A DNA stretch of 64,000 nt. Origin: an uncultured Acidobacteriaceae bacterium (GTDB lineage: Bacteria; Acidobacteriota; Terriglobia; Terriglobales; Acidobacteriaceae). A program made the translations under genes and the position numbers. The stretch lies in assembly GCA_963698865.1 (NCBI GenBank), contig CAVOSL010000002.1, forward strand, positions 166,514 through 230,513. Reading direction: 5' to 3'. Positions 31,607 to 62,813 of the stretch are shown one piece after another (positions within the stretch are counted from its first letter, which is position 1; every line of letters starts with the position of its first letter). A model generated the notes under the pieces. The model worked only from the letters and a program-made list of their open reading frames with translations, had not been told where the DNA came from and searched no databases.

Positions 31607-33283
31607 GTGAGCCCATCAGGTACAATTCTTCCTCTGCACCTTTTTTCTTCGATGTTAATGGCATTTCTACTTCGACCCTCGTCGTTCGCCCTGTTCCTCG
31701 CCTCCAAAGGCTTGGTCCCCTATTTCCGCCAGCACTTCCTCGACAAGACCTTTCAGGGCCTCTACCAGATCAACGCCTTCGATCTCGCCCTCCTCGTTCC
31801 CTACTTCATCGTCCTCATCATCCTCGCGGCCTACGGCGGCCACCGCTACTGGCTCGTCTATCTTTATTACAAGCACAAGAAGAACAAGACGACCGAGCCG
31901 TCCGGGCACTTCGATGAACTGCCGCGCGTCACCGTGCAGCTCCCAATCTTCAACGAGCAATACGTCGTCGATCGCCTCCTCGACGCCGTCTGCCGCCTCG
32001 ACTACCCACGCGAGAAGCTCGACATCCAACTCCTCGACGACTCCACCGACGAGACCGTCGAAGTCGCCCGCGCGCTAGTCGAGCGCTACGCCGCGCTCGG
32101 TAATCCGGTCAGCTATATCCACCGCGCAAATCGCCATGGCTTCAAGGCAGGGGCCCTCGAAGCCGGCCTTCAATCCGCCCAGGGTGAATTCGTCGCCATC
32201 TTCGACGCCGATTTCGTTCCGCCGCCCGACTTCCTGCTCAAGTGCATCCACCACTTCACCGACCCAAAAATCGGCATGGTGCAAACCCGCTGGACGCACA
32301 TCAATCGAGGCTACTCTCTGCTGACGCAGGTCGAGGCCATCCTCCTCGACGGTCACTTCGTCCTCGAGCACTCCGGACGCGCCCGCAGCGGTGTCTTCTT
32401 CAATTTCAACGGCACTGCTGGCATGTGGCGGCGCAAAGCGATAGACGAGGCTGGCGGCTGGGAGCACGACACCCTCACTGAGGACACCGATCTCTCCTAT
32501 CGCGCCCAATTAAAAGGATGGAAGTTCCTCTACCTCCAGGACGTTGAGTGCCCTGCCGAACTCCCCGTCGAAATGACAGCCTTCAAAACCCAGCAGGCAC
32601 GCTGGGCCAAGGGTCTGATTCAAGTCTCCAAGAAAATTTTGCCGCAAGTTTTCGCCAGCGACGCCTCGCGCCACCAGAAAGTCGAAGCCTGGTATCACCT
32701 GACCGCCAATCTCTCTTACCCGCTGATGATTGTGTTGTCGGTCCTTCTGCTGCCCGCCATGATCATCCGCTTTTATCAGGGATGGTTCCAGATGCTTTAC
32801 ATCGACCTCCCGCTCTTCATGGCGTCGACGTTTTCCATCTCCAGCTTTTATCTCGTCTCGCAGAAAGAATTGTTTCCGAAGAGCTGGGTGCGTTCCCTGC
32901 TCTACCTGCCTCTGCTCATGGCTCTCGGCATCGGCCTGACCATCACCAACACGCGCGCCGTCCTCGAAGCCCTGGTCGGCAAGCAGACCTCCTTTGTGCG
33001 CACCCCCAAATACCGCGTCGAATCGAAGAAGGATAAAGTGGGCGCAAACAAATACCGCAAGCGCCTGGGCTGGGTGCCGTGGATTGAAATAGCGATTGGC
33101 TGCTACTTCGCGCTGACGGTCTACTACGCCATCGACAACGAAAACTACTTCACGGTGCCATTCCTGTTGCTGTTCGTGATCGGCTACTGGTGCACAGGAC
33201 TAATGTCGTTATTGCAAGGCCGCTTTGCAGGATTGCAAGTAGGCTCAGAGGCTCACACCAAGCCGTTCCCAGTAGGAGTGTAA
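31607..33283 (+). CDS. family 2 glycosyltransferase (processive, CslA/cellulose-synthase-like), membrane-embedded
   Basis: VQLPIFNEQYV, LLDDSTDET (DxD), IFDADF, TEDTDLSYR, QQARWAKG (QxxRW), and multiple C-terminal TM helices. Start uncertain: GTG 31607 or ATG 31652/31658. Confidence 0.85.
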   Translation: MSPSGTILPLHLFSSMLMAFLLRPSSFALFLASKGLVPYFRQHFLDKTFQGLYQINAFDLALLVPYFIVLIILAAYGGHRYWLVYLYYKHKKNKTTEPSGHFDELPRVTVQLPIFNEQYVVDRLLDAVCRLDYPREKLDIQLLDDSTDETVEVARALVERYAALGNPVSYIHRANRHGFKAGALEAGLQSAQGEFVAIFDADFVPPPDFLLKCIHHFTDPKIGMVQTRWTHINRGYSLLTQVEAILLDGHFVLEHSGRARSGVFFNFNGTAGMWRRKAIDEAGGWEHDTLTEDTDLSYRAQLKGWKFLYLQDVECPAELPVEMTAFKTQQARWAKGLIQVSKKILPQVFASDASRHQKVEAWYHLTANLSYPLMIVLSVLLLPAMIIRFYQGWFQMLYIDLPLFMASTFSISSFYLVSQKELFPKSWVRSLLYLPLLMALGIGLTITNTRAVLEALVGKQTSFVRTPKYRVESKKDKVGANKYRKRLGWVPWIEIAIGCYFALTVYYAIDNENYFTVPFLLLFVIGYWCTGLMSLLQGRFAGLQVGSEAHTKPFPVGV

Positions 33284-33711
33284 AAAGCATTGAATCATTG
33301 AGAGATTGAGGGATTGAGAGATTGAGGTATTAGAAAACCAAATCAGCGGCGTACCCCAAGGGCAGTTCAATCACTCAATACCTCAATCAGTCAATGACAG
33401 GCTCACACCAAGCCGTTCCCAGTAGGAGTGTAAAAAGCATTGAATCATTGAGAGATTGAGGGATTGAGAGATTGAGGGATGAGATTGAGGTATTAGAAAA
33501 CCAAATCAGCGGCGTACCCCAAGGGCAGTTCAATCACTCAATACCTCAATCAGTCAATGACAGGCTCACACCAAGCCGTTCCCAGTAGGAGTGTAAAAAG
33601 CATTGAATCATTGAGAGATTGAGGGATTGAGAGATTGAGGTATTAGAAAACCAAATCAGCGGCGTACCCCAAGGGCAGTTCAATCACTCAATACCTCAAT
33701 CAGTCAATGAC
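33249..33711. repeat. tandem array, 3 units (150/163/150 bp); each unit is the last ~35 nt of the GT2 CDS plus an octamer-arm hairpin
   Basis: aggctcacaccaagccgttcccagtaggagtgtaa recurs at 33249, 33399 and 33562. Each copy is followed by a NATTGAGN x5-7 arm, a 38-nt loop and a tcaat-word arm. Confidence 0.9.
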
Positions 33712-46114: not shown

Positions 46115-46516
46115 CTAAGCCGCGCTGCGCCAGTCCCCAATCTCGCGCAATCCCTCGCCGCGCGAGTGCTCAAACAATCGAACCTTATGCCGGCTGTGCT
46201 CGAACTCATGAATATCCGCCCACACCTCCGCCTGCCATCCCATCTCGTGGGTCGAAGACTCGCCGCAAGATGCGCACCGCGTATGAAACGTCACTCCCGG
46301 CTTTCGCCCATGCGAATCCTGCAACTCGATAAATACGCAGCGCACCTCTTCAATCTCTTCATCTTCGCCGAGAACGTGCTCGTACCGCAGCAGGTATCCA
46401 AACCCAAGCTTGCGCGCCTCCGCCTCCGCCTCCTCGCGGGTATGGAACGGCCCATACTCAGCCCGCAACTGCTCCGTCGAGTCGCAAGCCATCCAGAAAA
46501 CGTCCTTGTTTTCCAT
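46115..46516 (-). CDS. hypothetical protein
   Basis: 133-aa ATG ORF with acidic/His-rich composition. No recognisable motif. Confidence 0.4.
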   Translation of the reverse strand: MENKDVFWMACDSTEQLRAEYGPFHTREEAEAEARKLGFGYLLRYEHVLGEDEEIEEVRCVFIELQDSHGRKPGVTFHTRCASCGESSTHEMGWQAEVWADIHEFEHSRHKVRLFEHSRGEGLREIGDWRSAA

Positions 46517-46951
46517 ACCTAGATACCAGATCCCAGCCTAAGCGACTCTATCACCGCTCTCGACCGTAGCGCCGGCGTCCCGCCGGCAGTTCCGAGAGCG
46601 TCTCGCTCTCGGCCCCGTCTCCACAACCGCAAACGCAAGGGCCGAATCGCCAAGCACTCCCCCAAACAATCGAGCAATTCAATGACCGAGCAGTCTACCC
46701 TATCCACTCCCAGCAAGCCTTATCCAACAAGGCCAAGAACCCCTCATATCCCAATGAAATACTGCAACTTACCAGCGACCCAAAACTCGCGCGTAGAACC
46801 CCGCGCCAACGAGTGCGCTGCTTCCCCTGTGAAATTCCTTGCCCTCCAGGCGCACGAACAAGAAATCCCGACGACCTACGCTCCCCCACAATTCGCCCCT
46901 TGAGGTACAATCGCACCCTCTGTCAAACCGGGCGTGAAAAGGAGAAAACAA

Positions 46952-47197
46952 ATGGGGTTCATCACGTGGATCGTGGTAGGGCTCATCGCCGGCTGGCTCG
47001 CCGGCCAGGTCATGAAGGGTGGAGGCTACGGCGTTCTCGTCGACATCATTCTCGGCATCCTCGGAGGCGTAGTCGGCGGCTGGGTTTTCGGAGCCTTGGG
47101 AATCTGGCCCGGCGGCGGACTCCTGGGCGCGATCATCGTCGCCTTCGTAGGCGCGGTCATTCTAGTCGGACTCACCCGCCTGATCAAGAAGGCCTAG
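46952..47197 (+). CDS. GlsB/YeaQ/YmgE-family small membrane stress protein
   Basis: AAGGAG lies 7 nt before the ATG. MGFITWIVVGLIAGWLAGQVMKGGGYGVLVDIILGILGGVVGGWVF. Confidence 0.85.
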   Translation: MGFITWIVVGLIAGWLAGQVMKGGGYGVLVDIILGILGGVVGGWVFGALGIWPGGGLLGAIIVAFVGAVILVGLTRLIKKA

Positions 47198-47426
47198 CCG
47201 CGCGAACCAGCCTCTACAAAAATGCGCTCGCGCTTCCGATTTGCCCGTCACAAATCCAAGTGACCTGCGTCATTGCATTTCATAGGAAGAATATGTTGTG
47301 GTCAACACGGTTCAAGAACGTACCCGCTCGAGCCGAAGAGCGGCCATCCTTGAGCTCGATAAGATGCCTTCGCGGACAGGTTAATGGCTGAAGTAATAAC
47401 GGCCGGAGCCTGAGATTGAGTCGTCC

Positions 47427-49661
47427 ATGAGCATCGGCAAGAACGACGTTCTCTTCGTTTTTCCGCCTGCCCCCAGAAATGCCGCCGCCTTCAAAAATCA
47501 TCTCGGGGTGGCATACCTCCGCGCGGCACTCGCCCGCGAAGGAATGGCCACAGTCCAATATCTGAACAGTAACCTTGGCCCGATCGACGCAGTCGCGCGC
47601 GACATCATTCAACAGAAGTGTCCCATCGTCGGTTTCACGGTGTATGACACAAATGCGCCTTTGTGTATTTCCATCGCCCAAAGCATTAAGCGCCAAAAAC
47701 CTGAAATCCGAATCGTGTTCGGCGGGCCCGCCGCCACTTTCACGGCGCGTCCCCTGATGGAAAGGCACGCGGTGATCGATGCCTGCGTCATGGGGGAGGC
47801 CGAAGAGACAGCCGCGCGAATCTTCGTGAAGTTGCTGGGCGGTGGTGAAGTCGACGATGCGGAGCCGGGAGTCGCTTTCCGCAGAGGCGGCGAGGTGGTT
47901 TGTACGCCATTGCCTCCTTTGGTTGGTGCAACTCAACCAGGCGTACAGGGATTGCTGGACAGCACCCCGTCACCTTATCTCTCGGGAATTCTCGCCGACG
48001 GTCAGGAAGGTGTGCTGACGGGCCGGGGCTGCACGCATCATTGCCAATACTGTTGCTTTGCCGCGCTGGGCAGGATGCGCCTACGCCTGCATTCCATTGA
48101 AAGGGTCGTTGCGGAACTGGAAAGCATCGCAGAACACCAGAAGCGAACCGGGAGACATTATCCGGTTTCTATCCAGGATGATGCGTTCACCCTACTGCCA
48201 TCGCGTGCCAAAGCCTTATGCCAGGCGATCGCGGATCGTAAGTTCAGTCTCCTCCTTTCTTGTGTCACGCGCGCCGACACGGTTGATGAGGAATTGATAA
48301 AACTGATGCGCGAGGCGGGCTTCGGGAGCATCGCCTTCGGCCTGGAGAGCGCAGTGCCTTCCGTTCTGCGAGCCATCGGTAAAGTACGGCCTCCCGATTG
48401 GCGTGACCCCGATTTGGCGCCAGAGCGGCAGTTTCTGGAACGGGTGAGGAACAGCATCCGTGTAGCCAGCAAATGCGGATTAAATGTAGGTGTGAGTATC
48501 ATCCTGGGTTTGCCGACCGAGACGCCGATCGACGGCGCCGAGACTCTTCGCTTCGTGAAGCAACTGCCGGTTGATTACTACGCGCACAATTTCTTGAAAA
48601 TATTTGCCGGCACGCCCCTGTGGACGACACATGACGATTATCGAATCGCTTGCACTGTAGACAAGATTGGCCTGCCCGAAACCACTGAGTATTCCTACGA
48701 CGTCAAGTCGCTGAAACCTGGTCCGAAATGCGAACTGGAGAACGATGCCCATCTGGTTCGGCTTTTGGCCAGAGATGCGCTTTACGGCTGTGGGGCATCG
48801 TCAACAGCAGGGAAAGGAATAAGCGCTGTGATCCTTAAGACGGGAGAGTTGTCGCCCCAGACAGCGGAATGGCTGCGGAGCATTCTCACAGTCGGCGGTA
48901 TCGTGGTGCAGATCTACCCGGCCATGAAGAGGAGCGGCGAGAAGCTGAGGCTGGATCGAGACCGCCATATTCTCCGCGAGCACGCGGTTCCTGTCCAGCA
49001 CTACATCCAGGTTCTACCGAAGAGCAGGAAGAGCAAGCATAACTCCCACGGCGGAGACGAGACCTTGGAGGTTGTATGTGCCGGCGTGGACATCATCCGT
49101 ATGCATAAGCCGGCGCTACTTCAGATCACCGCCTCACAAGACGCTAGTCCTCTGGCCGCTTGGATCAAGGGCCAGGACACCCAGGCGACAGTTTGTGAAG
49201 TATCGAAATATTTGGACCATTCGAGCGGACTCATTCCAATAATGGATCGGATTGAGGCTGAGGATTCACCTTCTCCTTTGCAGCGAATGCCTGTCCCGCC
49301 GCAGGTAAAGTATGCAGGCCGCTGGCTTAGAGGAAAAACTCCGTGTCTATCGCTAACCCGAATCGAGGTTTCCAGCTGCGGGGAAATTCGCAGCTGCCGG
49401 CAGGGTAAACCCATTGGAAAGGTTGGAGACTCCCGGAAAATCCTGGCGAGGCGATTGGCCCGGTTAGCAAGAGCTGTGGAGCAACGACGTGGCTGTGCAA
49501 AGTGTCGGAACAACCAGTGTCCGCGATGTCCATTTCCCGGACTTAACGATTTGAGGTATTGCCAAGTAATGACCAAACGAGAGCGATCTCTACGGTTGCT
49601 CAACTGGGTAGAGATATATTCTCGGCTCCCGTTGCTCTTGGCGCGACAGCGAGTTAGTTGA
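47427..49661 (+). CDS. B12-binding-domain radical SAM protein with C-terminal SPASM-like Cys-rich extension
   Basis: N-terminal B12-binding-like region (VLFVFPP, IVGFTVYD, IVFGGPAAT). CxxxCxxC at 48030-48053 (GCTHHCQYC). C-terminal cluster at 49344-49562: C-x11-C-x5-C...GCAKCRNNQCPRC...YC. Confidence 0.75.
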   Translation: MSIGKNDVLFVFPPAPRNAAAFKNHLGVAYLRAALAREGMATVQYLNSNLGPIDAVARDIIQQKCPIVGFTVYDTNAPLCISIAQSIKRQKPEIRIVFGGPAATFTARPLMERHAVIDACVMGEAEETAARIFVKLLGGGEVDDAEPGVAFRRGGEVVCTPLPPLVGATQPGVQGLLDSTPSPYLSGILADGQEGVLTGRGCTHHCQYCCFAALGRMRLRLHSIERVVAELESIAEHQKRTGRHYPVSIQDDAFTLLPSRAKALCQAIADRKFSLLLSCVTRADTVDEELIKLMREAGFGSIAFGLESAVPSVLRAIGKVRPPDWRDPDLAPERQFLERVRNSIRVASKCGLNVGVSIILGLPTETPIDGAETLRFVKQLPVDYYAHNFLKIFAGTPLWTTHDDYRIACTVDKIGLPETTEYSYDVKSLKPGPKCELENDAHLVRLLARDALYGCGASSTAGKGISAVILKTGELSPQTAEWLRSILTVGGIVVQIYPAMKRSGEKLRLDRDRHILREHAVPVQHYIQVLPKSRKSKHNSHGGDETLEVVCAGVDIIRMHKPALLQITASQDASPLAAWIKGQDTQATVCEVSKYLDHSSGLIPIMDRIEAEDSPSPLQRMPVPPQVKYAGRWLRGKTPCLSLTRIEVSSCGEIRSCRQGKPIGKVGDSRKILARRLARLARAVEQRRGCAKCRNNQCPRCPFPGLNDLRYCQVMTKRERSLRLLNWVEIYSRLPLLLARQRVS

Positions 49662-49709
49662 TGTGAAGAGGGTGAAGGCCGATAGAAAGCAAGACAGAGG
49701 AGGTTCCAT

Positions 49710-49904
49710 ATGAAATCGAAAGATAGTGTTCAGTATCTGGTGCGCAAACAAGCGGGCAAGGATGCAGTAATCATCCTAAACAAGGTCGATAAAATGCTTA
49801 AGCAGGATGTGGCTCGCGCGAAGATCGAAAGCGCGTTAGCGGTGGAGCTCACCGTTCACCTGAGGAGACAGTTGGTTAATCTTGTCCCCCCTATCCAACC
49901 TTAG
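49710..49904 (+). CDS. 64-aa hypothetical protein (candidate precursor peptide or accessory factor)
   Basis: GGAGG at 49699-49703 lies 6 nt before the ATG, which is 48 nt downstream of the rSAM stop on the same strand. MKSKDSVQYLVRKQAGKDAVIILNKVDKMLKQDVARAKIESALAVELTVHLRRQLVNLVPPIQP. Confidence 0.5.
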   Translation: MKSKDSVQYLVRKQAGKDAVIILNKVDKMLKQDVARAKIESALAVELTVHLRRQLVNLVPPIQP

Positions 49905-50038
49905 GCACAAATGTATCCGGGTAAAGGCAATTTACGTGCGCCCCAATTCCAAGGGCTTGGTGTCTGGGACTAGGGGTGGAGCACGCATGGCGCAAGACTC
50001 TTCTCGCTGGGAATCGCGGATCTCCTCACTCACCGGCT

Positions 50039-52432
50039 TCAGTTGGGAAGATGGAGTGTCCTAAGGATCTGGACATAGCGGGGGTCCTCGCGGAGAGGCC
50101 TCAGCAGCATGTCGGTTTTGATTAAGCAGAGACCAACATCGTGCTGCCGGTAGGCGCGGTTCAGCCAATCAAAGGCTTGATCTGTGTCCCTTCGATATGC
50201 GTAAACTTGCGCAATCTGATAAGCGCAAGTATTTTGATTTTGTGAGATCAAACTTGCCAGCGCAGCGTCGGATTCCTGGTGTCGCCCCAGATCCTGGAAG
50301 GCAAGTCCCATTCCAAGGTTGTGCTGGCAACCTGCCGGTTCCCTTTCCATCTCAGTCAGGGCTTCCCGGGGACGCCGTTGCGCCAGGTAAACCTCGCCGC
50401 GAGTTTCATGGGCCCAGACTTCGTTGGGATTGAGATCAAGGGCTTTCGTGAGATTGACAAGTGCTTCATCGTAGCGTCCCAGGTCTCGCAAGTACTGTGC
50501 GAGTTGCCGGTGTCGTCCGGCCACAAGCGGATCGAGAGCTACCGCCCGATTCATAAGCCCAACAGCCTCCTCCTGGCGGCCCAGACAGTTAGCGATAAAC
50601 GCGCTCGAGTCGAGATTGCTAGCGTCTCCAGGCGCTAGCTCCAGTGCTCTTTTCAGGGTTGACTCTGCAGCTGGGCAATTCAACTCCGTGAATAGCTGGA
50701 TCATGCTGAGAACGCGGTATCCTTCGGCCAGATTTGGATCCAACTCGATAGCCCTCTCGATGTCGCTTCGCGCGTTCCCTATCGCCTCAGAGTATTCGGT
50801 CCATCCGATTACACCGGAGGTTGCTGTGAGATAAGCGCGTAAGGCGTAGGCCGCGGCGTAATGCGGATCTGCTACGATCGCTTGATCTACGTACTCCAGA
50901 GCTTTTTGCCGGGATGCCTTGTCCACCCTGTTGGCAAAGTACCGCGATTGCAGGAAATCCTGAAAGGCTACGGGGCTCCTCGTTTGAGATGTACGACGTA
51001 TGTCCGGAGACACTCCAGGAAGCAGCTTAAGTCGCAGCGCCGAAGTGACGTCTTTCGCAATATCATCCTGCACTGTAAGGACGTCATTTAAATCACGATC
51101 GTAGGACTCTGACCAGATATGAAAGCCGTCACCCGCTTTAATAAGCTGCGCCGTGATCCGAACACGCGTCCCGTCTCTTCGCACGCTCCCTTCAAGCACG
51201 TTGTCCACGTTGAGTTTCCGTCCGATCACGCGCAGGTCTTCGTTCTTCCCTTTGAACTGAAATGCTGAGGTACGAGCCACCACCTTCAGGTTCGGGATTC
51301 TGGCGAGATCGTTCAGGATTTCTTCTGCTAATCCGTCCGAGAAGTACTCTTGGTCATGGCTAGGACTCAGGTCGGCAAACGGCAGCACTGCAATAGAAGC
51401 TGTAATCACTGGTCCGGTATTCCCTTGGACATACTGCTGCCACAAGCCCAAAGCGACAATCGCCAGAGCGAGGATCGCGGCGCCGACCATCGAAAACATG
51501 CCCCTATGAAAACTTACCTCCCGCTCAGATTGCCCATTGATAGCGTTGAATTTCGATGAACCGGTTTCCGTACAATGCTCCAGGCGTCGCAAATCGATGG
51601 CCAGTTCCTTCGCCGACTGGTAACGGTTCTCCGGTTCCTTCTCCATGCATTTCCCGATGATCCTCTCCAATTCCGGAGACAACCTGGAATTGAGCGCCGC
51701 AGGTGGGAGTGGTAGCCTGCTCAGAATCGCACTAATCAGTTGCGCTTGCTCCAACTTGCCGAATGGTCGTTGCCCGGTGGCCATCTCGTAGAGTACGGAT
51801 CCGGCCGCATGCAGGTCCGTGCGAGCGTCAATCTCTGCGCCCAGCAACTGTTCCGGCGTCATGTAGGGCAGAGTCCCGGCCATGGTCCGTGTCTCGCCCA
51901 GACTCTCCGTGGTGGCCGTCGTCGTCACCGGCAGCCGTAGCATGGCCAACCCGAAATCCAGAATCTTCAGCCGTCCATCGCTCGTAACCCGCAAGTTGCC
52001 GGGCTTGAGGTCCCGATGAACGACCCCGCGCTCATGGGCCGCCGCCAAGCCTTCCGCAAGCTGGATTCCCAGTCGGACGATCTCCTTTTCCGGCAGCGGT
52101 CGACCGGCCAGCTTTTCGCTCAATGTAATCCCGGGGATGTACTCCATCACCAGGAAGTCCACTCCTTGTTGCGAGTCGAAATCGTGGATCGTGGCGACGT
52201 TGGGATGATTGAGCTGCGAGAGAACCAGAGCTTCTTTGTGAAAATGCTTGCGCGCGGATTCGTCGCTGAGAGTACCGGGGGGAAGGACTTTGATGGCGAC
52301 ATCACGGGGTAAGTGCTCGTCACGGGCGCGATAGACTTCTCCCATGCCGCCCGCGCCGATCTTTTCGACGATGCGATAGTGGTCCAGCGTTTGGCCAACA
52401 AGTGTATCTTGGCCTACGACCTGGCTCGCCAT
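50039..52432 (-). CDS. Ser/Thr protein kinase with TM, periplasmic TolB-N-like module and TPR repeats
   Basis: GAGGMGEVYRARD, HRDLKPGN, DFGLA, TLPYMTPE. One TM helix. IAVLPFADLS...YFSDGLAEEI module. C-terminal TPR-like repeats. Confidence 0.9.
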   Translation of the reverse strand: MASQVVGQDTLVGQTLDHYRIVEKIGAGGMGEVYRARDEHLPRDVAIKVLPPGTLSDESARKHFHKEALVLSQLNHPNVATIHDFDSQQGVDFLVMEYIPGITLSEKLAGRPLPEKEIVRLGIQLAEGLAAAHERGVVHRDLKPGNLRVTSDGRLKILDFGLAMLRLPVTTTATTESLGETRTMAGTLPYMTPEQLLGAEIDARTDLHAAGSVLYEMATGQRPFGKLEQAQLISAILSRLPLPPAALNSRLSPELERIIGKCMEKEPENRYQSAKELAIDLRRLEHCTETGSSKFNAINGQSEREVSFHRGMFSMVGAAILALAIVALGLWQQYVQGNTGPVITASIAVLPFADLSPSHDQEYFSDGLAEEILNDLARIPNLKVVARTSAFQFKGKNEDLRVIGRKLNVDNVLEGSVRRDGTRVRITAQLIKAGDGFHIWSESYDRDLNDVLTVQDDIAKDVTSALRLKLLPGVSPDIRRTSQTRSPVAFQDFLQSRYFANRVDKASRQKALEYVDQAIVADPHYAAAYALRAYLTATSGVIGWTEYSEAIGNARSDIERAIELDPNLAEGYRVLSMIQLFTELNCPAAESTLKRALELAPGDASNLDSSAFIANCLGRQEEAVGLMNRAVALDPLVAGRHRQLAQYLRDLGRYDEALVNLTKALDLNPNEVWAHETRGEVYLAQRRPREALTEMEREPAGCQHNLGMGLAFQDLGRHQESDAALASLISQNQNTCAYQIAQVYAYRRDTDQAFDWLNRAYRQHDVGLCLIKTDMLLRPLREDPRYVQILRTLHLPN

Positions 52433-52504
52433 GGGGAAAGCACTCCTTCCCCCGCCTTCTCAAGCAAATCCTAGGCTCGGCGGTGGTGCAAGTCAATGTA
52501 CTCG

Positions 52505-52751
52505 TCTGGCGGCGTCGCCGGGGACAATGACTACGCTCTTCCAGCGTCGTCAAATCCAGCGGCTCATTGCGCTTGAGCCAGCGATAGAAGGTCTGCCGGC
52601 TGATGCCAAAGTGACGGCAAGTATGAGCCACGTTTCCGCAGCGTCGATAAAAATCCATCCCGGCCAATCGCACCCGCGCTTCCCGGCTCAACTCCACTCC
52701 GGTCCCAGGCAGTCGCCCCGAACCAGGCGGTTTTCCCCCGCGAATTTGCAT
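52505..52751 (-). mobile_element. IS481-like transposase N-terminal HTH remnant (truncated)
   Basis: LSREARVRLAGMDFYRRCGNVAHTCRHFGISRQTFYRWLKRNEPLDLTTLEERSHCPRRRRQ resembles IS481-family HTH leaders. No DDE domain follows, and the ORF runs into the kinase upstream region. Confidence 0.55.
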
Positions 52752-52882
52752 TTCGACACTCTATTCGAGTGTCACTAATCATTCTGAACGAGAGCAGAAG
52801 GCCTGACTCCGCGAACCAACCGTTCCGTCGAACACCTTTACAGGTTAGAATCTCTGTTCCTCCCCAGAGACATACCTGAGTT

Positions 52883-54337
52883 ATGTTCGAACAAGCCTTC
52901 AAAAACATTGACGACGTTCTTCGCAAGGAAGCCGGCTGCACCACCGAACTCGATTACACCGAGCAGACTTCCTGGCTGCTCTTCCTGAAATATCTCGAAA
53001 ACCTCGAACAGGAGCGCGCCACCGAGGCGGCGCTGCAAGGCCGGAAGTATTCGCCGCTGCTCGAAAAGGCCTACCAATGGGAAAGCTGGGCCGCGCCCAA
53101 GGGCAAGGACGGCAAACTCGACCACAACAAAGCCATGACCGGAGACGATCTCCGCGACTTCGTCAATACGAAGCTCTTTCCCTACCTTCAGGGCTTCAAG
53201 AAAAAGGCCAGCGGCCCGAACACCATCGAATACAAAATCGGGGAGATCTTCGGCGAGATCAAGAACAAGATTCAGAGCGGCTACAACCTGCGCGAAATTC
53301 TCGACCATATCGACGAACTTCAATTCCGCTCGCAGACCGAGAAGCACGAACTGTCGCATCTCTACGAGGCGAAAATCCGCAACATGGGCAACGCCGGGCG
53401 CAATGGCGGCGAGTATTACACTCCGCGGCCGCTCATCCGCGCTATCGTGCAGGTCGTCAAGCCGCGCATCGGCGAACGCATCTATGACCCGGCGGTGGGA
53501 TCGGCGGGTTTCCTGTGCGAGTCGTTTGAGTACCTGACCAAAAATAAGAACCTGACCACGAAAGACGTACGTACGCTTCAGGAAAAGACCTTCATCGGCA
53601 AGGAGAAGAAGTCGCTCGCCTACGTGATTGCCATCATGAACATGATCCTGCATGGCATCGAGGCGCCGAACATCCTTCACGTCAACACGCTCACGGAAAA
53701 CACAGCCGATATACAGGAGAAAGAACGCGTCGAAGTGATCATGGCGAATCCGCCTTTCGGCGGCAAAGAGCGCAAGGAGGTACAACAGAACTTTTCCATC
53801 CGCACCGGCGAGACGGCGTTTCTGTTTCTCCAGCACTTCATCAAGATGCTGAAGGCGGGCGGGCGCGCCGGCATCGTGATCAAGAATACGTTTCTTTCGA
53901 ATACCGACAACGCTTCGGTGAGCCTGCGCAAGGTGCTGCTCGAAAGCTGCGCGCTGCACACGGTGCTCGACTGCCCCGGCGGGACGTTCCAGGGCGCGGG
54001 CGTGAAGACGGTGGTGCTCTTCTTCGAGAAAGGCGCGCCCACGCGGAAGATCTGGTATTACCAGCTCGATCCGGGACGCAATCTGGGCAAGACCAATCCG
54101 CTTAACGACGACGATCTGGCGGAGTTCGTGAAGCTGCAAAGGACTTTTGCCGACTCGGCGAAGTCGTGGACGGTGGATGCCAAGGGCATCGACAAGGCTA
54201 CGTTCGATCTTTCGGTGAAGAATCCGAATGGCGGCGAGGAGATTGCGCACCGCACGCCGCAGGAAATCATGGATGAGATTGCCGCGCTGGATGCCGAGAG
54301 CGCGGAGGTGCTGGCGGGGATTCGGGCGCTGCTATGA
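52883..54337 (+). CDS. hsdM: type I restriction-modification methyltransferase subunit M
   Basis: HsdM N-terminal domain (FKNIDDVLRKEAGCTTELDYTEQTSWLLFLKYL), GEYYTPRPL, DPAVGSAGFL, ANPPFGG. Confidence 0.93.
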   Translation: MFEQAFKNIDDVLRKEAGCTTELDYTEQTSWLLFLKYLENLEQERATEAALQGRKYSPLLEKAYQWESWAAPKGKDGKLDHNKAMTGDDLRDFVNTKLFPYLQGFKKKASGPNTIEYKIGEIFGEIKNKIQSGYNLREILDHIDELQFRSQTEKHELSHLYEAKIRNMGNAGRNGGEYYTPRPLIRAIVQVVKPRIGERIYDPAVGSAGFLCESFEYLTKNKNLTTKDVRTLQEKTFIGKEKKSLAYVIAIMNMILHGIEAPNILHVNTLTENTADIQEKERVEVIMANPPFGGKERKEVQQNFSIRTGETAFLFLQHFIKMLKAGGRAGIVIKNTFLSNTDNASVSLRKVLLESCALHTVLDCPGGTFQGAGVKTVVLFFEKGAPTRKIWYYQLDPGRNLGKTNPLNDDDLAEFVKLQRTFADSAKSWTVDAKGIDKATFDLSVKNPNGGEEIAHRTPQEIMDEIAALDAESAEVLAGIRALL

Positions 54338-55464
54338 GGGACGGCTGGAAGAAGCAATCATTCGAGAGCTGCATCGAACGGGTGACCTATACCCAGAAGA
54401 TTCAGCGCAAGGACTTCTTGGGTGATGGCGCGTACCCGATCGTGTCGCAAGAAGAGAGCTTCATAAATGGCTATTGGGATAACGAGGACGATCTCTTCAA
54501 GGTCACCACGCCAGTCGTTATATTCGGCGACCACACAAAGGTTCTAAAATATGTCGATTTCGATTTCGTGCTTGGCGCTGACGGGGTGAAGATCTTACAG
54601 CCGCGTGAGTTTCTGGTTCCGAAATTCTTTCTTTACCGACTGCAGGCGGCGAGCCTTGATTCTCTTGGCTACGCCCGGCACTACAAACTGCTGAGAGAGC
54701 TTGAGATTGCCTACCCGTCTCTTCCCGAACAGCGGCGGATCGTCGGCATCCTCGACGAGGCGTTTGCGGGCATCGCCACCGCCAAAGCCAATGCCGAAAA
54801 GAATCTGCAAAACGCCCGCGCCCTCTTTGAAAGCTACCTCCAATCGCTCTTCACCCAGCGCGGACTGGGCTGGATTGAGAAGCGGCTTGACGAACTTTGT
54901 ACCTTCACGAGCGGGGGCACGCCGCCGAAGAACAACGTCAGTTATTGGCGGGGCAAGATTCCTTGGGTTTCTGGACGGGACATGAAATCGACCCGGCTGT
55001 GCGATTCGCAACTGCACATTTCTCAATCTGCGGTTGATGGTTCCTCAACTCGCATGGCGCCGGCAGGGGCACTGCTGATCCTTGTGCGCGGAATGGGCCT
55101 GGCCCATGGCGCCCAAATCGCCGAACTGATGGCTCCCTGTGCGTTCAATCAGGACATCAGAGCCATGCACCCCAAACCCGAGCTAATACCTCGCTATCTT
55201 CTCTTTGCCTTGCGAGACAGAATCAATGCGAGCGAGACCGTTCTAAGCAATGCGGCTCATGGAACGCTGAAGATAGACTCAGCCCAATTGGAGAGCGTGA
55301 CGATTCCTATCCCTTCGCGCCAGGTGCAGCAGAGAATTGTGGCTACGATCGACGGGCTTTCGGATGAAACATGGCGCCTTGAATCTATCTACCAGCGCAA
55401 GCTCGCCGCGCTGGAGGCGCTGAAGAAGTCGCTGCTGCACCGGGCGTTTACGGGCCAGCTTTGA
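54334..55464 (+). CDS. hsdS: type I restriction-modification specificity subunit S
   Basis: ATGA overlap with hsdM. Two target-recognition halves separated by conserved helices (LPEQRRIVGILDEAF..., SRQVQQRIVATIDGL...). Confidence 0.88.
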   Translation: MRDGWKKQSFESCIERVTYTQKIQRKDFLGDGAYPIVSQEESFINGYWDNEDDLFKVTTPVVIFGDHTKVLKYVDFDFVLGADGVKILQPREFLVPKFFLYRLQAASLDSLGYARHYKLLRELEIAYPSLPEQRRIVGILDEAFAGIATAKANAEKNLQNARALFESYLQSLFTQRGLGWIEKRLDELCTFTSGGTPPKNNVSYWRGKIPWVSGRDMKSTRLCDSQLHISQSAVDGSSTRMAPAGALLILVRGMGLAHGAQIAELMAPCAFNQDIRAMHPKPELIPRYLLFALRDRINASETVLSNAAHGTLKIDSAQLESVTIPIPSRQVQQRIVATIDGLSDETWRLESIYQRKLAALEALKKSLLHRAFTGQL

Positions 55465-55475
55465 GGTCGTTCTCT

Positions 55476-55549
55476 CAGTTGGTGACAAATTGTCACCAAC
55501 TGGAATTGCCTCGCATAGCGGTCAACTGGTGACAATCTGTCACCGGTTG
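55476..55549. promoter_or_regulatory. two copies of palindrome GGTGACA-N3-TGTCACC (a third lies inside the next gene at 55854-55880)
   Basis: cagttggtgacaaattgtcaccaactg (55476-55502, perfect 13-bp arms) and caactggtgacaatctgtcaccggttg (55523-55549). Confidence 0.5.
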
Positions 55550-55673
55550 AAAATGGCGGCAGGCGGCGTGAGAAAAGAGCAAGATCAACAACAAGAGCAG
55601 GGCAACAGCAAGGGCAATAGCAACACCAACGACAACGGCGGCGGACAGGAGTGTCCGCCCTACAAGGAGCGCC

Positions 55674-56536
55674 ATGGAGCACCTGCCCGTGCAGTTCGAA
55701 AATCAGGCCATCCGCCGAGTTTTTGACGAGCCGACCGAAACCTGGTGGTTTTCCGTGGTGGACATCGTGCAAGTACTCACCCAGCAGCCCGATCCCCAGA
55801 CCGCGCGCAAATACTGGAACAAGCTGAAAGAACGGCTGGGAAACGAAGGTAGTCAAGTGGTGACAAATTGTCACCAGTTGAAAATGACGGCCGGTGACGG
55901 CAAGCAACGCCTTACCGATGTGGCTACTGCGGGGACGCTGTTGCGTCTGGTGCAGTCCATCCCCAGCCCCAAGGCCGAATCGATCAAGGTGTGGCTAGCC
56001 AGGGTTGGGTATGAGCGGATGCAGGAGATGGCCGACCCGGCATTGTCGCTCGACCGCGCGCGCGAGACCTGGCAAAAGCACGGACGCAGCGAGAAGTGGA
56101 TTCAGCAGCGCATGACTGGGCAGGAAACCCGCAATAAACTGACCGACTATTGGTCGGAGCATGAGATTAAACAGGGAGAAGAGTACGCCATTCTCACCAA
56201 CTTATTCATGAGGAGTGGGCCGGGGTGAGCGTCAAGGCGCACAAGGACCTAAAGGGTCTCAAGAGCCAGAACCTGCGCGATCATATGAGCGAGGCGGAAT
56301 TGATTTTTACCGCGCTGGCCGAGCTTTCTACCCGTCAACTGGCTGAAAGTGTGGAGGCCACCGGGATGACGGAGAACAAGTCGGCAGCGAGGCAGGGCGG
56401 CCGGATCGCGAAGAAGGCGCGCCTCGATCTGGAGAGCAAGACCGGGCAGCGAGTCGTCAGTGGAGCAAATTTTCTGCCGCCGCGAGGACCGGTCCAAAAG
56501 CAGATCGGCGGCGCGAAAAACCGCAAGAAAAAATGA
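55674..56536 (+). CDS. Bro-N / DinD-like (DNA-damage-inducible protein D-like) protein, frameshifted in this assembly near 56200-56205
   Basis: Bro-N-like N-terminus (FENQAIRRVFDEPTETWWFSVVDIVQVL, SIPSPKAESIKVWLA). After ...YAILTN the sequence IHEEWAGVSVKAHKDLKGLKSQNLRDHMSEAELIF continues in the frame of ORF 56225..56536. Confidence 0.7.
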
Positions 56537-58931
56537 ACGAAGCCGAAACCAGAGCGGAGCACATCGATCCCGCGTTGAAGGCGGCGGGATGGGGCGTGGT
56601 CGACGGCAGCCGCGTCCGGCGCGATTACTGGATTGCGCCCGGACGGATTGAAGGGCGCATTTCGGGAGACCTCCGGCGCGCGAAACCGCTGCGCGCCGAT
56701 TACGTTCTGGAATATCGCAACACTAAACTCGCCGTCGTCGAAGCCAAGGCCTGGAACGAGGCGCTCACCGAAGGCCTGGCGCAGGCCAAGAATTACGCCG
56801 AGAAGATGGAGATTCGCTACACCTATTGCACCAACGGCCAGGGCATCTACGGCATCGACATGAAGACGGGCAAGGAAGGCACGGTGCCGGTCTATCCCAC
56901 TCCGGACGAGCTTTGGAACCGGACGTTTGCCAAGGCTAACGCATGGCGCGACCGTTTTGCCGCCGTACCCTTCGAGGACAAGGGCGGGACGCTGGGCGAC
57001 CGCTATTTCCGCGACCTGGCGATTGAGCGCGTGCTGGAGGCGATTGCGCAGGGCCGGCAGCGGATTCTGCTTACGCTGGCCACCGGGACGGGGAAGACGC
57101 TGATCGCTTTTCAGATTGCGTGGAAGCTTTTTCAGAGCCGCTGGAATTTGAGCGATTGGAAGAAAGACACGCCGCCGTCGCGCCGGCCGCGAATTCTTTT
57201 CCTGGCGGACCGGAACATTCTAGCCGACCAGGCCTATAACGCTTTTTCGTCGTTTCCGGAAGATGCGCTGGTGCGGATCGCTCCCGACAGCGTTCGCAAA
57301 AAAGGCCGGGTGCCGACCAACGGAAACATATTCTTCACGATCTTTCAGACGTTCATGAGCGGGCCCAAAGTCGATGGGGAGGATACGCCCTACTTTGGCG
57401 AGTATCCGCCAGACTTTTTCGACTTCATCGTGATCGACGAATGCCATCGCGGCGGAGCCAACGACGAGGGCAACTGGCGCGGCATCATGGATTACTTTGC
57501 GCCCGCGGTTCAGCTTGGCCTGACTGCGACTCCGCGGCGCAAGGAGAACGCCGACACCTATGAGTATTTTGGCGAGCCAGTCTATATCTACTCGCTGCGC
57601 GAGGGCATCAATGATGGCTTCCTGACGCCGTTCCGCGTGAAGCAGATTCGCCACCACGCTGGACGAATATGTCTACACGCCCGATGACTTTGTGGTGGAC
57701 GGCGACGTGCTGCCCGGCAAGCGCTACATGGAACCCGACTTCAACAAGATCATCGAGATCGAGGCGCGGGAAAAGCATCGCGTGAAACTATTCATGGAGC
57801 AGATCAACCAGAACGAAAAGACGCTGGTCTTCTGCGCCACGCAGGACCATGCGCTGGCGGTGCGCGACCTGATTAACCAGATCAAGACGAGCGCCGACCC
57901 GAATTATTGCCAGCGCGTAACCGCGAACGACGGCGAACTCGGGAACCAGCATTTGCGCGACTTTCAGGACAACGAAAAAACGATTCCCACGATTTTGACT
58001 ACGTCGCAGAAGCTCTCGACCGGCGTGGATGCCCGGAATATCCGGAACATTGTGCTGATGCGGCCCATCAATACGATGATCGAGTTCAAGCAGATTATCG
58101 GGCGCGGGACGCGACTGTACGACGGCAAAGACTACTTCACCATCTACGATTTTGTGCGCGCCTATGTGCACTTCAGCGATCCGGAATGGGATGGCGAGCC
58201 GCTGGAGCCGTCGCCGTGCGCAAAATGCAATGCTTATCCTTGCGAGTGCGACCGGCCCGCGCCGCATCCGTGCGCGGTATGCGGGCAACGGCCATGCGTG
58301 TGCCCGAAAGAGGCTTGCGAAGTTTGCGGGCAGCAGCCGTGCGTGTGCCGGAGAAAAGCGACGGTGAAGCTGGCCGACGGGAAAGAGCGCGCGATTCAGC
58401 ACATGATGGCGACGGCGTTCTGGCATCCGGATGGAACGCCGATGTCGGCGCAGCAATTCATGGAGTCGCTGTTTGGGGAGTTGCCGGAATTTTTCAAGGA
58501 TGAGGCCGAACTGCGCGCCTTGTGGAGCGTCCCTGATACGCGGAAGAAATTGCTGGAAGGGCTGGCGGAGAAGGGATTTGGACACGAACAACTGGCGGAG
58601 ATGCAGAGGATCATCAACGCGGAGAAGAGCGATCTGTTCGACGTGCTGGCCTATGTTGCCTACGCACTGCCGCCGCTAACGCGCGAGGAGCAGAGCGGTT
58701 AGGGCAAAGGCACCGATCAGCAGACAGTTCAATGCGAGGCAGCAGTCCTTCCTCAGTTTCGTTCTGGCGCACTACGTAGGCGAGGGCGTGGACGAACTGG
58801 ATCAGGAAAAACTCGCGCCGCTGCTCCGGCTCAGGTATTTCAATTCCACCTCCGACGCGATCGCCGACCTGGGAGAGCCCGAAGAAATCAGGAAGGTGTT
58901 CGTGGGCTTTCAAAAATATCTGTACCAATGA
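56533..58931 (+). CDS. hsdR: type I restriction enzyme subunit R (EcoEI-like C-terminus), split over three frames in this assembly
   Basis: MNEAETRAEHIDPALKAAGW, LATGTGKT, VIDECHRG (frame 1). ...TTLDEYVYTPDDFVVDG and helicase C-terminal blocks TSQKLSTGVDA, QIIGRGTR (frame 2, from ~57650). RAVRAKAPISRQFNARQQSFLSFVLAHYVGEGVDEL...RYFNSTSDAIADLGEPEEIRKVFVGFQKYLYQ-stop (frame 0, from ~58692). Confidence 0.88.
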
Positions 58932-59797
58932 GAGCGTCATAAAGCAGCTCACTCCTCACCTTGGTCCGTTACTTCTTTTCCATAAACGGAGCTGAGGTAT
59001 TTCAATTCCACGTCGGACGCAATTGCCGACCTGGGGGAGCCCCGAAGAAATCAGAAGGGTATTCGTGGGATCTCAAAAATACTTATACCAATGAGCGTGG
59101 ATAAGCTGCCCACCCTTCACCTTGCCCTGTCACTCCTTTCCCATAAACGGGCTGAGGTATTTCAATTCCACGTCGGACGCAATTGCCGACCTGTGGGAGC
59201 CCCGAAGAAATCAGAAGGGTATTCGTGGGATTTCAAAAATACTCTATACCAATGAGCGTGGATAAGGCTGCCCACCCTTCACCTTGCCCTGTTACTCCTT
59301 TCCCATAAACGGGCTGAGGTATTTCAATTCCACGTCGGACGCAATTGCCGACCTGGGGGAGCCCCGAAGAAATCAGAAGGGTATTCGTGGGATCTCAAAA
59401 ATACTTATACCAATGAGCGTGGATAAGCTGCCCACCCTTCACCTTGCCCTGTCACTCCTTTCCCATAAACGGGCTGAGGTATTTCAATTCCACGTCGGAC
59501 GCAATTGCCGACCTGGGGAAGCCCCGAAGAAATCAGAAGGGTATTCGTGGGATCTCAAAAATACTTATACCAATGAGCGTGGATAAGCTGCCCACCCTTC
59601 ACCTTGCCCTGTCACTCCTTTCCCATAAACGGAGCTGAGGTATTTCAATTCCACGTCGGACGCAATTGCCGACCTGGGGAAGCCCCGAAGAAATCAGAAG
59701 GGTATTCGTGGGATCTCAAAAATACTTATACCAATGAGCGTGGATAAGCTGCCCACCCTTCACCTTGCCCTGTCACTCCTTTCCCATAAAAACGGAG
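58833..59797. repeat. tandem array of 6 units of ~160-162 bp seeded by the hsdR 3' end
   Basis: aggtatttcaattcc starts at 58833, 58995, 59155, 59317, 59477 and 59638. Units 1-5 are near-identical to each other. Unit 0 is the real gene end. Confidence 0.92.
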
Positions 59798-59959
59798 ACG
59801 GGGTGATCCGCCGTTGCCTGTTTTGTAACGGTGGGCCGCGATGCTGCCTGCGGCCAAGGCTCCGAGGAAAGGAGCCCGGCCATGATGATTATAGGTTGCG
59901 AACTTACACACACTCCGCCGTCGCCCCCTCCCCCGGCCCGCCCCGCCGCGCGCTCCGCC

Positions 59960-60313
59960 TCACCCCGTCCCTCCACCTAGTGCGTACCTCCCGAAGATGC
60001 CGCAGCCGCCTTGGCTGCGCCCTCCGCAAAGGGTACGACTTCCTCGCCAACCGCCCGCATTCCACTCGACCGGCGCCGCCGGTGCTGCGCGCCCTAGTTC
60101 CATCCGCCAGTTCGCGCCGCCGTGGCTGGCCACGTAGAGCGCCAATTCCAGCCTCGTCCACACTCCCAGCTTGTCAAAGGTTGTCCGCAGATAGTTCTTC
60201 ACCACCTGCTCGCTCGTTCCGAGCACCGCGGCAATGTCCTTGTTCGTCAGACCCTGCCACACCAGCGAAGCTACTTGAATCTCTTTTCCGGTCAGTCGGT
60301 CGCGGGGGGGCAT
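59960..60313 (-). CDS. LuxR/GerE-type HTH protein (small, no receiver domain)
   Basis: ATG at 60313. LTGKEIQVASLVWQGLTNKDIAAVLGTSEQVVKNYLRTTFDKLGV. The C-terminal ~50 aa look non-native. Confidence 0.6.
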   Translation of the reverse strand: MPPRDRLTGKEIQVASLVWQGLTNKDIAAVLGTSEQVVKNYLRTTFDKLGVWTRLELALYVASHGGANWRMELGRAAPAAPVEWNAGGWRGSRTLCGGRSQGGCGIFGRYALGGGTG

Positions 60314-60534
60314 GGCTGCACCTGCTCCTTTATGAACATGGCGGTCGCAAGCTTCACTCGCTTCCGGCCTTCTTTGATGCCTGCGCGCAAAAACAACGTG
60401 CGCAGGTGCTGCTTCACGGTCCGCGGGCTGATGTTCAAATGACTCGCAATCTCCTTGTTGCTGCATCCTTGCACCAACAGATGGAGAACCTCCTCGTCCC
60501 GAGGGGTAATCTTGATTTCACTGAGATTGATCAT
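60292..60534 (-). CDS. LuxR/GerE-type HTH protein (80 aa, HTH only)
   Basis: ITPRDEEVLHLLVQGCSNKEIASHLNISPRTVKQHLRTLFLRAGI. Overlaps the next LuxR ORF by 22 nt. Confidence 0.7.
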   Translation of the reverse strand: MINLSEIKITPRDEEVLHLLVQGCSNKEIASHLNISPRTVKQHLRTLFLRAGIKEGRKRVKLATAMFIKEQVQPCPPATD

Positions 60535-62182: not shown

Positions 62183-62813
62183 GAGCGAAGAAAACGCGAA
62201 TCACGGGGAGCAAAAATAAATTTGATTTGTGAGGCAGCGAAAAAGTGCCAAATTCGGGATTTTTCGTGAGTTTGATGTTTACTCTCTGGTACTGAGGGCG
62301 CCTTTCTCTGATCGATTGAGATCATGGGGTTAGCGGGGAGTTCTGGTTGGTTTATTGAAAGAGAAGGAGTTAGGTCGAGTTATTGCGAAATAAGGAGTTA
62401 CTCGTTTACGGGCCGTTTTATCAGGTGGGCGCGGGCCGAATTTGTCAAGTTGACAGGGCGTGCTATGGGAGTCGAGATTTGGAAGGGACTGCGGGGAGAG
62501 CCCATCGAACCCTGACCTTGCGGCAAGAGGGAAACTGGGAAACGTTCCGCCTGCTACCAGCGGCATCGCAGACCCACCCTTGCAAAGAACGCAAGGATGG
62601 GGCACCCTCGTTTCATTATGGGAAAGGAAAACAGAGCGTGGAGGGTGGGCCACCTGTCCCCAATGAAAGTAGACTGGTATACGGATATCCAACTAACGGG
62701 TCCGAGTTTTACGGGACAGGGAAACGTCGGCGCGTACGTTGCGGGCAAACTTATTTGGACTGCGACAAGGAAAGCCACCGGCGCGCCGATAACGAATTAC
62801 TTACCGTTTACCG

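Follow-up and report, generated by a model that had tools for sequence, protein, structure and literature searches.

In the genome of an uncultured Acidobacteriaceae bacterium (GenBank assembly GCA_963698865.1), the hsdR gene of a type I restriction-modification (R-M) locus is followed by a tandem array of sequences resembling its own 3' end, and this arrangement raises an evolutionary question: How did the gene come to be trailed by five repeated tails which are almost the same as each other and so different from the gene end that precedes them? The stretch of DNA analysed here, called the window, is 64,000 nt long and spans positions 166,514 to 230,513 of contig CAVOSL010000002.1; coordinates below are those of the window unless another contig is named. 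Judging from the substitutions that separate the tails, we consider it probable that the array is a non-coding relic, namely the severed 3' end (32 codons plus stop) and adjoining flank of a second hsdR allele that was sister to the resident one. The main new result behind this reading is that, since the two tails parted, the repeated one appears to have spent most of its time as functional coding sequence.

Structure and uniqueness of the array

Tandem Repeats Finder (TRF), applied to the whole window, returned the repeats at 58828-59790 as a single array with a period of 160 nt, 6.0 copies, 94% matches and a score of 1641, along with a second reading of the same array in which the unit is 322 nt. 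Alignment of the six units with MAFFT, combined with the repeat finder, places their starts at 58833, 58995, 59155, 59317, 59477 and 59638, with spacings of 162, 160, 162, 160 and 161 nt, in agreement with a preliminary description of this DNA. The copies thus form a true tandem array, being arranged head to tail with constant period, and their joints read CGG(A)GCTG|AGG throughout, the bar marking the boundary between units; since the period is not a multiple of three, the array encodes no protein repeat.

Unit 0 (58828-58994, on the plus strand like all the others) comprises the end of the resident hsdR (58833-58931, 32 codons and stop), then 63 nt of 3' flank, and closes with the joint CGGAGCTG|AGG that is found also in the inner units. 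It represents the true end of hsdR, as first proposed, for the frame runs to ...RYFNSTSDAIADLGEPEEIRKVFVGFQKYLYQ-stop at 58929-58931 and the match to the Pfam domain EcoEI_R_C extends to the last residue. Units 1-5 are 96-100% identical to each other, with either unit 2 or unit 3 as the query, and 81-83% identical to unit 0, a little above the 75-80% estimated beforehand. All five carry an extra C (GAGCCCCGAAG), the deletion of which in silico restores a readable tail, ...EPEEIRRVFVGSQKYLYQ-stop in units 1 and 3 and GKPEE in units 4 and 5, as had been anticipated; unit 2 has an additional indel. A change of phenylalanine to serine marks four of these inner copies, unit 2 keeping the phenylalanine. 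Unit 1 (58995-59154) is a relic tail with the +1 C frameshift and the Phe to Ser change, plus flank, and is 100% identical to unit 3 (59317-59476). The most divergent copy is unit 2 (59155-59316), which has a G to T change and two 1-nt insertions while retaining the ancestral TTT (Phe) and GTTACT of unit 0. Unit 4 (59477-59637) has a G to A change (GGGGAAGCC) and the joint variant CGGAGCTG; unit 5 (59638-59797), which has the same G to A change, is the last of the series and continues into unique flank ...CCATAAAAACGGAGACGGGG. The single-nucleotide differences listed in the preliminary description are all present in the alignment.

The unit is confined to this place. Its six matches in the 5.65-Mb genome are those of the array itself, and the two matching genomes among 200 of the same family align over hsdR coding sequence only. 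A degenerate exact pattern of the non-coding part gave 0 matches in genome contigs and 0 in metagenome contigs, while two units searched against plasmids and phages found no match. TRF detected no tandem array at the hsdR end in any of 80 related loci, which were taken from GTDB genomes, and none of the seven closest metagenomic hsdR loci has an array or this 3' flank; literature searches for arrays of hsdR tails returned nothing specific. Because the unit is restricted to the array and lacks counterparts in plasmids, phages and sequence collections, it does not represent the terminus of a mobile or dispersed element, a possibility that the preliminary description had raised as a challenge to its own interpretation.

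Could the copy number, or even the whole multi-copy state, have been generated by the assembly? There are signs of an imperfect consensus, such as frame breaks in the window and, elsewhere in the genome, a stretch of about 330 nt of nearly pure G/A (poly-G-like) lying inside a contig, beside a tRNA gene and 1 kb from an integrase (G000:C8:335442-335769), which looks like a sequencing or assembly artefact and calls for caution on the consensus quality of this genome. Against such an origin, the variants are distinct and ordered along the array (unit 1 equal to unit 3, unit 4 similar to unit 5, unit 2 unique), unique flanks border it on either side, and the assembly in 8 contigs, the largest of 2.86 Mb, implies long reads that would easily span 1 kb; moreover, short-read assemblers collapse arrays of this kind rather than creating them. 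An artefact is therefore very unlikely.

Divergence of the two hsdR tails

The evidence that carries our interpretation comes from the comparison of unit 0 with the inner units over the 32 codons (96 nt) that they share. The 13 differences in this coding part comprise ten at third positions, one synonymous at a first position (CTG/TTA), one Lys/Arg exchange and the Phe to Ser change, which hits a residue that is invariant in 68 of 68 homologues. The Nei-Gojobori method (NG86) gives a pS of 0.53 and a pN of 0.013-0.027, hence a dN/dS of 0.014-0.03. The tail of the unit-1 type reads ...EIRRVFVGFQKYLYQ-stop, with the third-position states ACG/TCG/TAC/TTA.

These differences can be polarised with the DNA of the seven closest hsdR relatives, the tails of which read KYFNSTSDAIADLGEPEEIR[K/R]VFVGFQKYLYQ-PGA/PGV/PVA. 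The lineage of the array shows seven changes common to all five copies, six of them synonymous and one a conservative replacement of Lys by Arg at a position where both residues occur among the relatives. Under neutrality, about 79% of random changes would be expected to be replacements by NG86 site counts, and the probability of no more than one nonsynonymous change among seven is ~6e-4. The lineage of unit 0 shows six changes, all synonymous, five of which run from A/T to G/C. An 8-bp palindrome in the same region, GCGATCGC in unit 0 and GCAATTGC in units 1-5, remains symmetric despite two synonymous changes; we judged this a coincidence, since the palindrome is not conserved in the relatives.

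At the same time, the two tails are each other's closest kin. They have in common the derived states AAT, CCC and AAA, which are absent from all seven relatives, and the state ATC, otherwise seen in one relative only (L105). Both end three codons early (CAA TGA), where the relatives read Q-P-G-A/V-stop, and both are followed by the same 3' flank, found in none of the relatives, the beginning of which (GAGCGTG...) represents the remains of the lost last codons. The mismatch between unit 0 and units 1-5 in this flank is ~23%, to be set against the pS of 0.53 at synonymous sites. The shared derived states, the early stop and the flank show that the tails are sisters.

The simplest account of such a pair might seem to be a tandem duplication in place of the present hsdR tail, after which selection continued to act on unit 0 alone, the non-coding copies decaying neutrally and concerted evolution holding them alike. 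Tails and flanks are indeed mutually closest, the flank occurs in no other hsdR locus, all joints are alike, and microhomology-mediated tandem duplications are common and mostly neutral (PMC13167724). What disfavours it is the substitution pattern: Neutral decay predicts that first and second codon positions are hit about three times as often as third positions, whereas six of the seven changes along the array lineage are synonymous and the seventh is the Lys to Arg replacement. A model in which the copy decays neutrally at once and unit 0 changes only synonymously has a P of 8e-5 to 4e-4 (that is, ~1e-4 to 4e-4). We regard duplication in place as unlikely. Unit 0 differs by 17-19% from the other units with a pattern of synonymous type on both lineages, and the parent of units 1-5 would be the sister allele rather than unit 0. 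Because the divergence is almost exclusively synonymous, we conclude that the repeated tail probably derives from a second hsdR allele that was long functional, and not from decay in place of the present tail. The core of the preliminary description, according to which a decayed paralogous or allelic hsdR tail with its 3' flank had been amplified head to tail, is in this way strengthened by dN/dS values and by seven outgroups.

Origin, function and recurrence of the array

The history that we propose for the relic of a sister allele would begin with an ancestral allele having the early stop and this flank, which gave rise to two lineages, both encoding functional protein. An illegitimate joint with only 1-3 nt of microhomology may then have linked the flank ...AAACGGAG to the other allele's ...CTGAGGTAT, leaving the old tail directly behind the flank of the new gene; the joint reads ...CCATAAACGGAG|CTGAGGTATTTC... 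and shares at most 1-3 nt of microhomology with hsdR ...CTCCGG|CTCAGGTAT. Two routes could lead there. One is an allele replacement in which homology served as anchor on one side only and the other side was joined illegitimately; the second is a tandem duplication of the whole cassette, giving tandem R-M paralogues, followed by a deletion between them. The stranded tail would next have gained one C, inherited by all five copies, and been multiplied by slippage and by unequal crossing-over between direct repeats: The initial duplication of unit 1 would need only a short exchange in ...CCATAAACGGAG, and ordinary unequal crossing-over would suffice afterwards. Later small changes would include Phe to Ser (four copies), G to A (units 4 and 5) and three changes private to unit 2, the unit that retains two ancestral states. 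We infer the formation of the joint and the order of events, as we do the lack of function considered below, and the data do not fix whether replacement or amplification came first.

The first route has a parallel in homology-facilitated illegitimate recombination, which accompanies the uptake of foreign DNA in Acinetobacter, Pseudomonas stutzeri and Streptococcus pneumoniae. The same term is used elsewhere (PMC6382021). Such a mechanism would explain one side of homology, one joint of microhomology and a resident gene end stranded behind incoming DNA; for the hsdR array it can only be deduced, and the later five-fold amplification is not part of it. The amplification step resembles bacterial gene amplification, in which a microhomology-mediated tandem duplication is followed by RecA-dependent unequal crossing-over (PMC1428787, PMC13167724). 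The array shares with that process the head-to-tail units, a joint of 1-3 nt microhomology, near-identical inner copies and a position outside essential coding sequence, where neutrality is expected. It differs in that the first unit is not the parent and belongs to a different, long-diverged allele; also, amplifications are usually unstable and kilobases long, whereas here the units are of 160 bp and have persisted long enough to gather variants. In kind, then, the array is ordinary, a microhomology joint and an amplification acting on what would be the relic of an allele replacement.

Site-specific integration would offer a different route to displaced gene ends. Native 3' ends are displaced at the integration sites of genomic islands in tRNA and tmRNA genes, and likewise by the integrative elements ICESt1 and ICESt3 and cis-mobilizable elements (CIMEs) in the 3' end of fda. 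There, too, a displaced copy decays behind a functional gene end, and the units at hsdR could be viewed as attachment (att) scars of repeated integration at the 3' end of the gene by elements bearing replacement tails, with their cargo later lost. A replacement end held in frame by selection would likewise diverge synonymously, and two tRNA genes of this genome have 3'-end-plus-flank arrays starting at the anticodon loop and the T-loop, reportedly the classical places of integrase crossover under the sublocation rule of Williams 2002. Yet none of the 18 Phage_integrase matches of the genome lies in the window, where there is no tyrosine recombinase, the nearest being at C2:109365, ~57 kb away; only 63 nt of flank, rather than cargo, separate the tails, there is no mobile partner, and the copies are five and identical. 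The unit is not dispersed and is absent from the plasmids, phages and genome or metagenome collections searched, and the longest block of identity between units 0 and 1 is only ~18-20 nt. The near-identity of units 1-5 implies, besides, that they are not independent insertions. Duplication of an att site, or accretion of islands, thus lacks support and we hold it to be quite improbable. Among the origins offered in the preliminary description, slippage or unequal crossing-over fits the amplification and a scar of R-M replacement fits the pair of units 0 and 1, while the att site falls for want of an integrase in the window.

Does the array do anything? The folding of the unit is no better than that of shuffled sequences on either strand (z of +0.68 and +0.79), Rfam has no match inside the units (the sole match at E<=1, M23 with E 0.91, lies outside them), and neither promoter-like nor terminator-like sites were found within them. 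A structured RNA family was rejected on the Rfam result and the z-scores. Two other classes were rejected, as they had been at first reading. A diversity-generating retroelement (DGR) is contradicted by the lack of any RVT_1 match in the whole genome, control genomes having given matches, and by mismatches that are synonymous (11 of 13) rather than directed to adenine, A standing in the repeat copy at 5 of 13 differences. An array of clustered regularly interspaced short palindromic repeats (CRISPR) is excluded since whole 160-bp units repeat without unique inserts or spacers between them.

Selection might nonetheless have favoured the array, either as RNA- or protein-binding modules in a long 3' untranslated region of hsdR or as a reserve of silent, defective tails whose transfer to hsdR would stop restriction but leave methylation running. 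In line with this, the flank is better conserved between unit 0 and units 1-5 than are synonymous sites, and the tail lies within the conserved EcoEI_R_C domain (its Phe and Leu are both invariant in 68 of 68 homologues), so that moving the +1 C tail onto hsdR would damage the enzyme; the array offers the homology by which such a defective tail could recombine onto the gene. The binding modules suggested in the preliminary description find no support, however, in the searches for structure, Rfam families, promoters and terminators. Every silent copy encodes the same defect, so that no diversity arises; recombination between direct repeats, unless by gene conversion, would remove the good tail for ever; there is no array in the 80 related loci; and hsdR is already broken twice in the assembled sequence. 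Phase-variable type I R-M systems rely on hsdS shufflons with inverted repeats and a recombinase, or on simple-sequence tracts in hsdM or hsdS. Here we likewise find repeats of part of an R-M gene beside the locus, but these are direct rather than inverted, belong to hsdR rather than hsdS, have no recombinase and, being alike, produce no variation. Identical silent copies in direct orientation make a liability rather than a switch. Selection for the array we hold to be very unlikely, and most likely the array has no function, even if it is predicted to lengthen by ~800 nt the untranslated stretch from hsdR to the first terminator-like hairpin.

Several points weigh against a relic of a sister allele, and need to be kept in view. 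The coding sample is small (96 nt, with its 13 differences), and an intact gene having a tail of unit-1 type with this flank was found in none of the collections searched, so the donor or sister allele is a deduction. The contrast between the flank mismatch and pS could mean constraint on the flank, that is, function, or simply small numbers. The joint between units 0 and 1 is the same as the inner joints, which a one-step history does not fully explain. Finally, the number of six copies is that of the assembled sequence, and lack of predicted structure or motifs is no proof of non-function.

A further question is whether this genome makes such arrays repeatedly, as the preliminary description supposed from a second array at 33249-33711. 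That array is real (TRF period 150/163, 3 copies, 92-93% matches). Genome-wide, TRF gave 35 rows with a period of at least 50, among which four non-coding arrays of high identity repeat a gene 3' end plus flank: those at hsdR, GT2 (33249-33711), tRNA-Pro(GGG) and tRNA-Arg(CCG). Recurrence holds to this extent, but the units of the other three are unrelated to the hsdR unit. The GT2 unit consists of the last ~35 nt of the GT2 gene and a long hairpin of ATTGAGAG-type octamers. Like the array at hsdR, this one is flanked by convergent genes, here GT2 and a GAF-TonB gene, and its octamer arms are a dispersed sequence that BLAST matches 58 times in the genome. The tRNA-Pro(GGG) array (G000:C7:1263133-1263446, L108) has a period of 133, made up of 46 nt of the tRNA (anticodon loop through 3' end) and 87 nt of flank, in 2.4 copies that are 100% identical, while the tRNA-Arg(CCG) array (G000:C3:160440-160702, L109) combines the final 25 nt of the tRNA, starting at the T-loop, with 94 nt of flank, at period 119 and in 2.2 copies. 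The flanks of these two tRNA arrays share a module of ~70 nt (GGCGTGAGCGAAGCGGGAGCC...CCGAAATCCCGAA), which is lacking in the hsdR unit and of which ~10 more copies are dispersed, one beside an integrase at C7:2725205. There is, in addition, an array of a 5' end (G000:C7:2830735-2831005), in which a 134-nt unit occurs twice (86%) and includes the start codon of a minus-strand gene; the N-terminus of its product resembles the GxxExxY / 23S-IVS four-helix-bundle family, and an integrase lies 5 kb away (C7:2825626).

Comparable repeats linked to tRNA genes have been known in E. coli since 1978. Those of tyrT are units of 178 bp that close with ~19 nt of the tRNA 3' end. They resemble the hsdR array in repeating a gene 3' end plus flank head to tail directly behind an intact gene; the hsdR array differs in that the gene is protein-coding and the copies are 17-19% removed from the gene's own end, with substitutions of coding type. 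One might then regard the hsdR array as the product of a recurrent, undescribed process that duplicates gene 3' ends with their flanks at zones of transcription termination. Both arrays at protein genes stand where two genes converge, a setting that would favour template switching at stalled forks; the same unexplained maker would account for the E. coli repeats, and the better conservation of the flank than of synonymous sites would follow from a role of the flank or from selection acting on the displaced tail. Against this, a duplication running from inside a gene end to downstream leaves the gene intact, so arrays of this kind are expected from survivorship alone. Nothing supports a common maker, though one may exist, and we find it highly doubtful that a process of this kind produced the array at hsdR.

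Genomic setting and significance

The array forms the right edge of a strain-specific segment of 13.4 kb (46522-59975), which contains genes of a radical S-adenosylmethionine (rSAM)-peptide-kinase system, an IS481-like remnant and the type I R-M locus. By tblastx and blastn against the window, the segment is absent between the same two flanking genes in both congeners, G178 (L010) and G050 (L009); their homology stops at 46521 and resumes at 59975-59977, only ~520-610 bp lying between. On the left it is flanked by a small, pgl-proximal gene (46118-46521) with a homologue in the congeners. The B12-rSAM/peptide/kinase system falls inside this variable block (46522-59975) and is likewise missing from both congeners. 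Synteny and the repeat finder revealed no direct repeats or exact edges of the segment, because even the two congeners have no conserved intergenic DNA in common. Beyond the array, a gene for a LuxR/GerE-family regulator (59960-60466; Pfam GerE 9e-12) is conserved in both congeners, with 74-82% nucleotide identity in G050 and G178. Its minus-strand orientation means that hsdR and this gene converge on the array between them. Exactly where the array ends on the right, a minus-strand pattern match (59797-59812) suggests a terminator-like hairpin with a T-run for this convergent gene, the T-run being the AAAAA of the last unit. Farther on, a short dispersed repeat at 62552-62654 is common to several contigs of G178, some copies of which stand there in tandem with ~168-bp spacing (C12:65089/65256/65424).

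The R-M locus itself, on the plus strand, has hsdM, hsdS and hsdR with their Pfam domains in one operon, as expected of type I systems. The first two genes are intact: hsdM (52883-54337) encodes 484 aa with N6_Mtase (6.8e-62) and HsdM_N, and is 77-84% identical in nucleotides to relatives from the exact start codon; hsdS (54334-55464) encodes 376 aa with two stretches of Methylase_S (8.3e-21). Between hsdS and hsdR lies a Bro-N/DinD-like gene (55674-56536) in two frames, with a break near 56210-56230 and a Bro-N match (1.8e-7) on 55674-56228; the relatives lack it at this position, hsdS there abutting hsdR. Its surroundings contain palindromes at 55475-55555 and 55853-55886 and, upstream of the gene, a non-coding 48-nt copy (55521-55568, 83%) of the Bro-N coding segment 55852-55899. 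Moreover, a stretch of ~60 nt (55603-55664), which overlaps the beginning of the gene from upstream, has dozens of matches in the congener G178, some of them in rows spaced at 90 bp (for example C7:225477-225796), and belongs to a dispersed repeat family shared within the genus.

The hsdR gene, of EcoEI_R_C type (56533-58931), would encode ~798 aa if read through, and its Pfam matches (ResIII, SWI2_SNF2, Helicase_C and EcoEI_R_C) are spread over three frame pieces. Comparison with intact homologues reveals two 1-nt insertions in the assembled gene, near 57649 and near 58691-58694, which break the frame; neither lies within a long homopolymer. The hsdMSR cassette is exceedingly common among bacteria of different groups: HsdR has 70-85% amino acid identity across many phyla (70-90% to thousands of HsdR proteins in the assignment to type I R-M), and thousands of proteins match it at E<=1e-20. 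Ahead of the EcoEI_R_C domain are three Cys-rich CxxC...PCxC modules (58217-58360), and in the same region is a 45-nt direct repeat (58271-58314 and 58316-58359, 77%). In nucleotides, relatives match the cassette from the first codon of hsdM exactly as far as the hsdR stop and no further.

What does the relic tell us? It would show cleanly, in a natural setting, how amplification can follow an illegitimate joint, and would point to a new mechanism only if the process of 3'-end duplication were truly recurrent. In annotation, a repeat region or pseudogene fragments would be the proper label for the array, rather than open reading frames. Its interest is mainly that of genome archaeology, since a stranded gene end of 96 nt would still record that its parent gene was functional. 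In biological terms, it suggests replacement or duplication, at this site, of a type I restriction cassette that is widely transferred, and the locus fits the picture of a decaying restriction half beside a retained methylation half.

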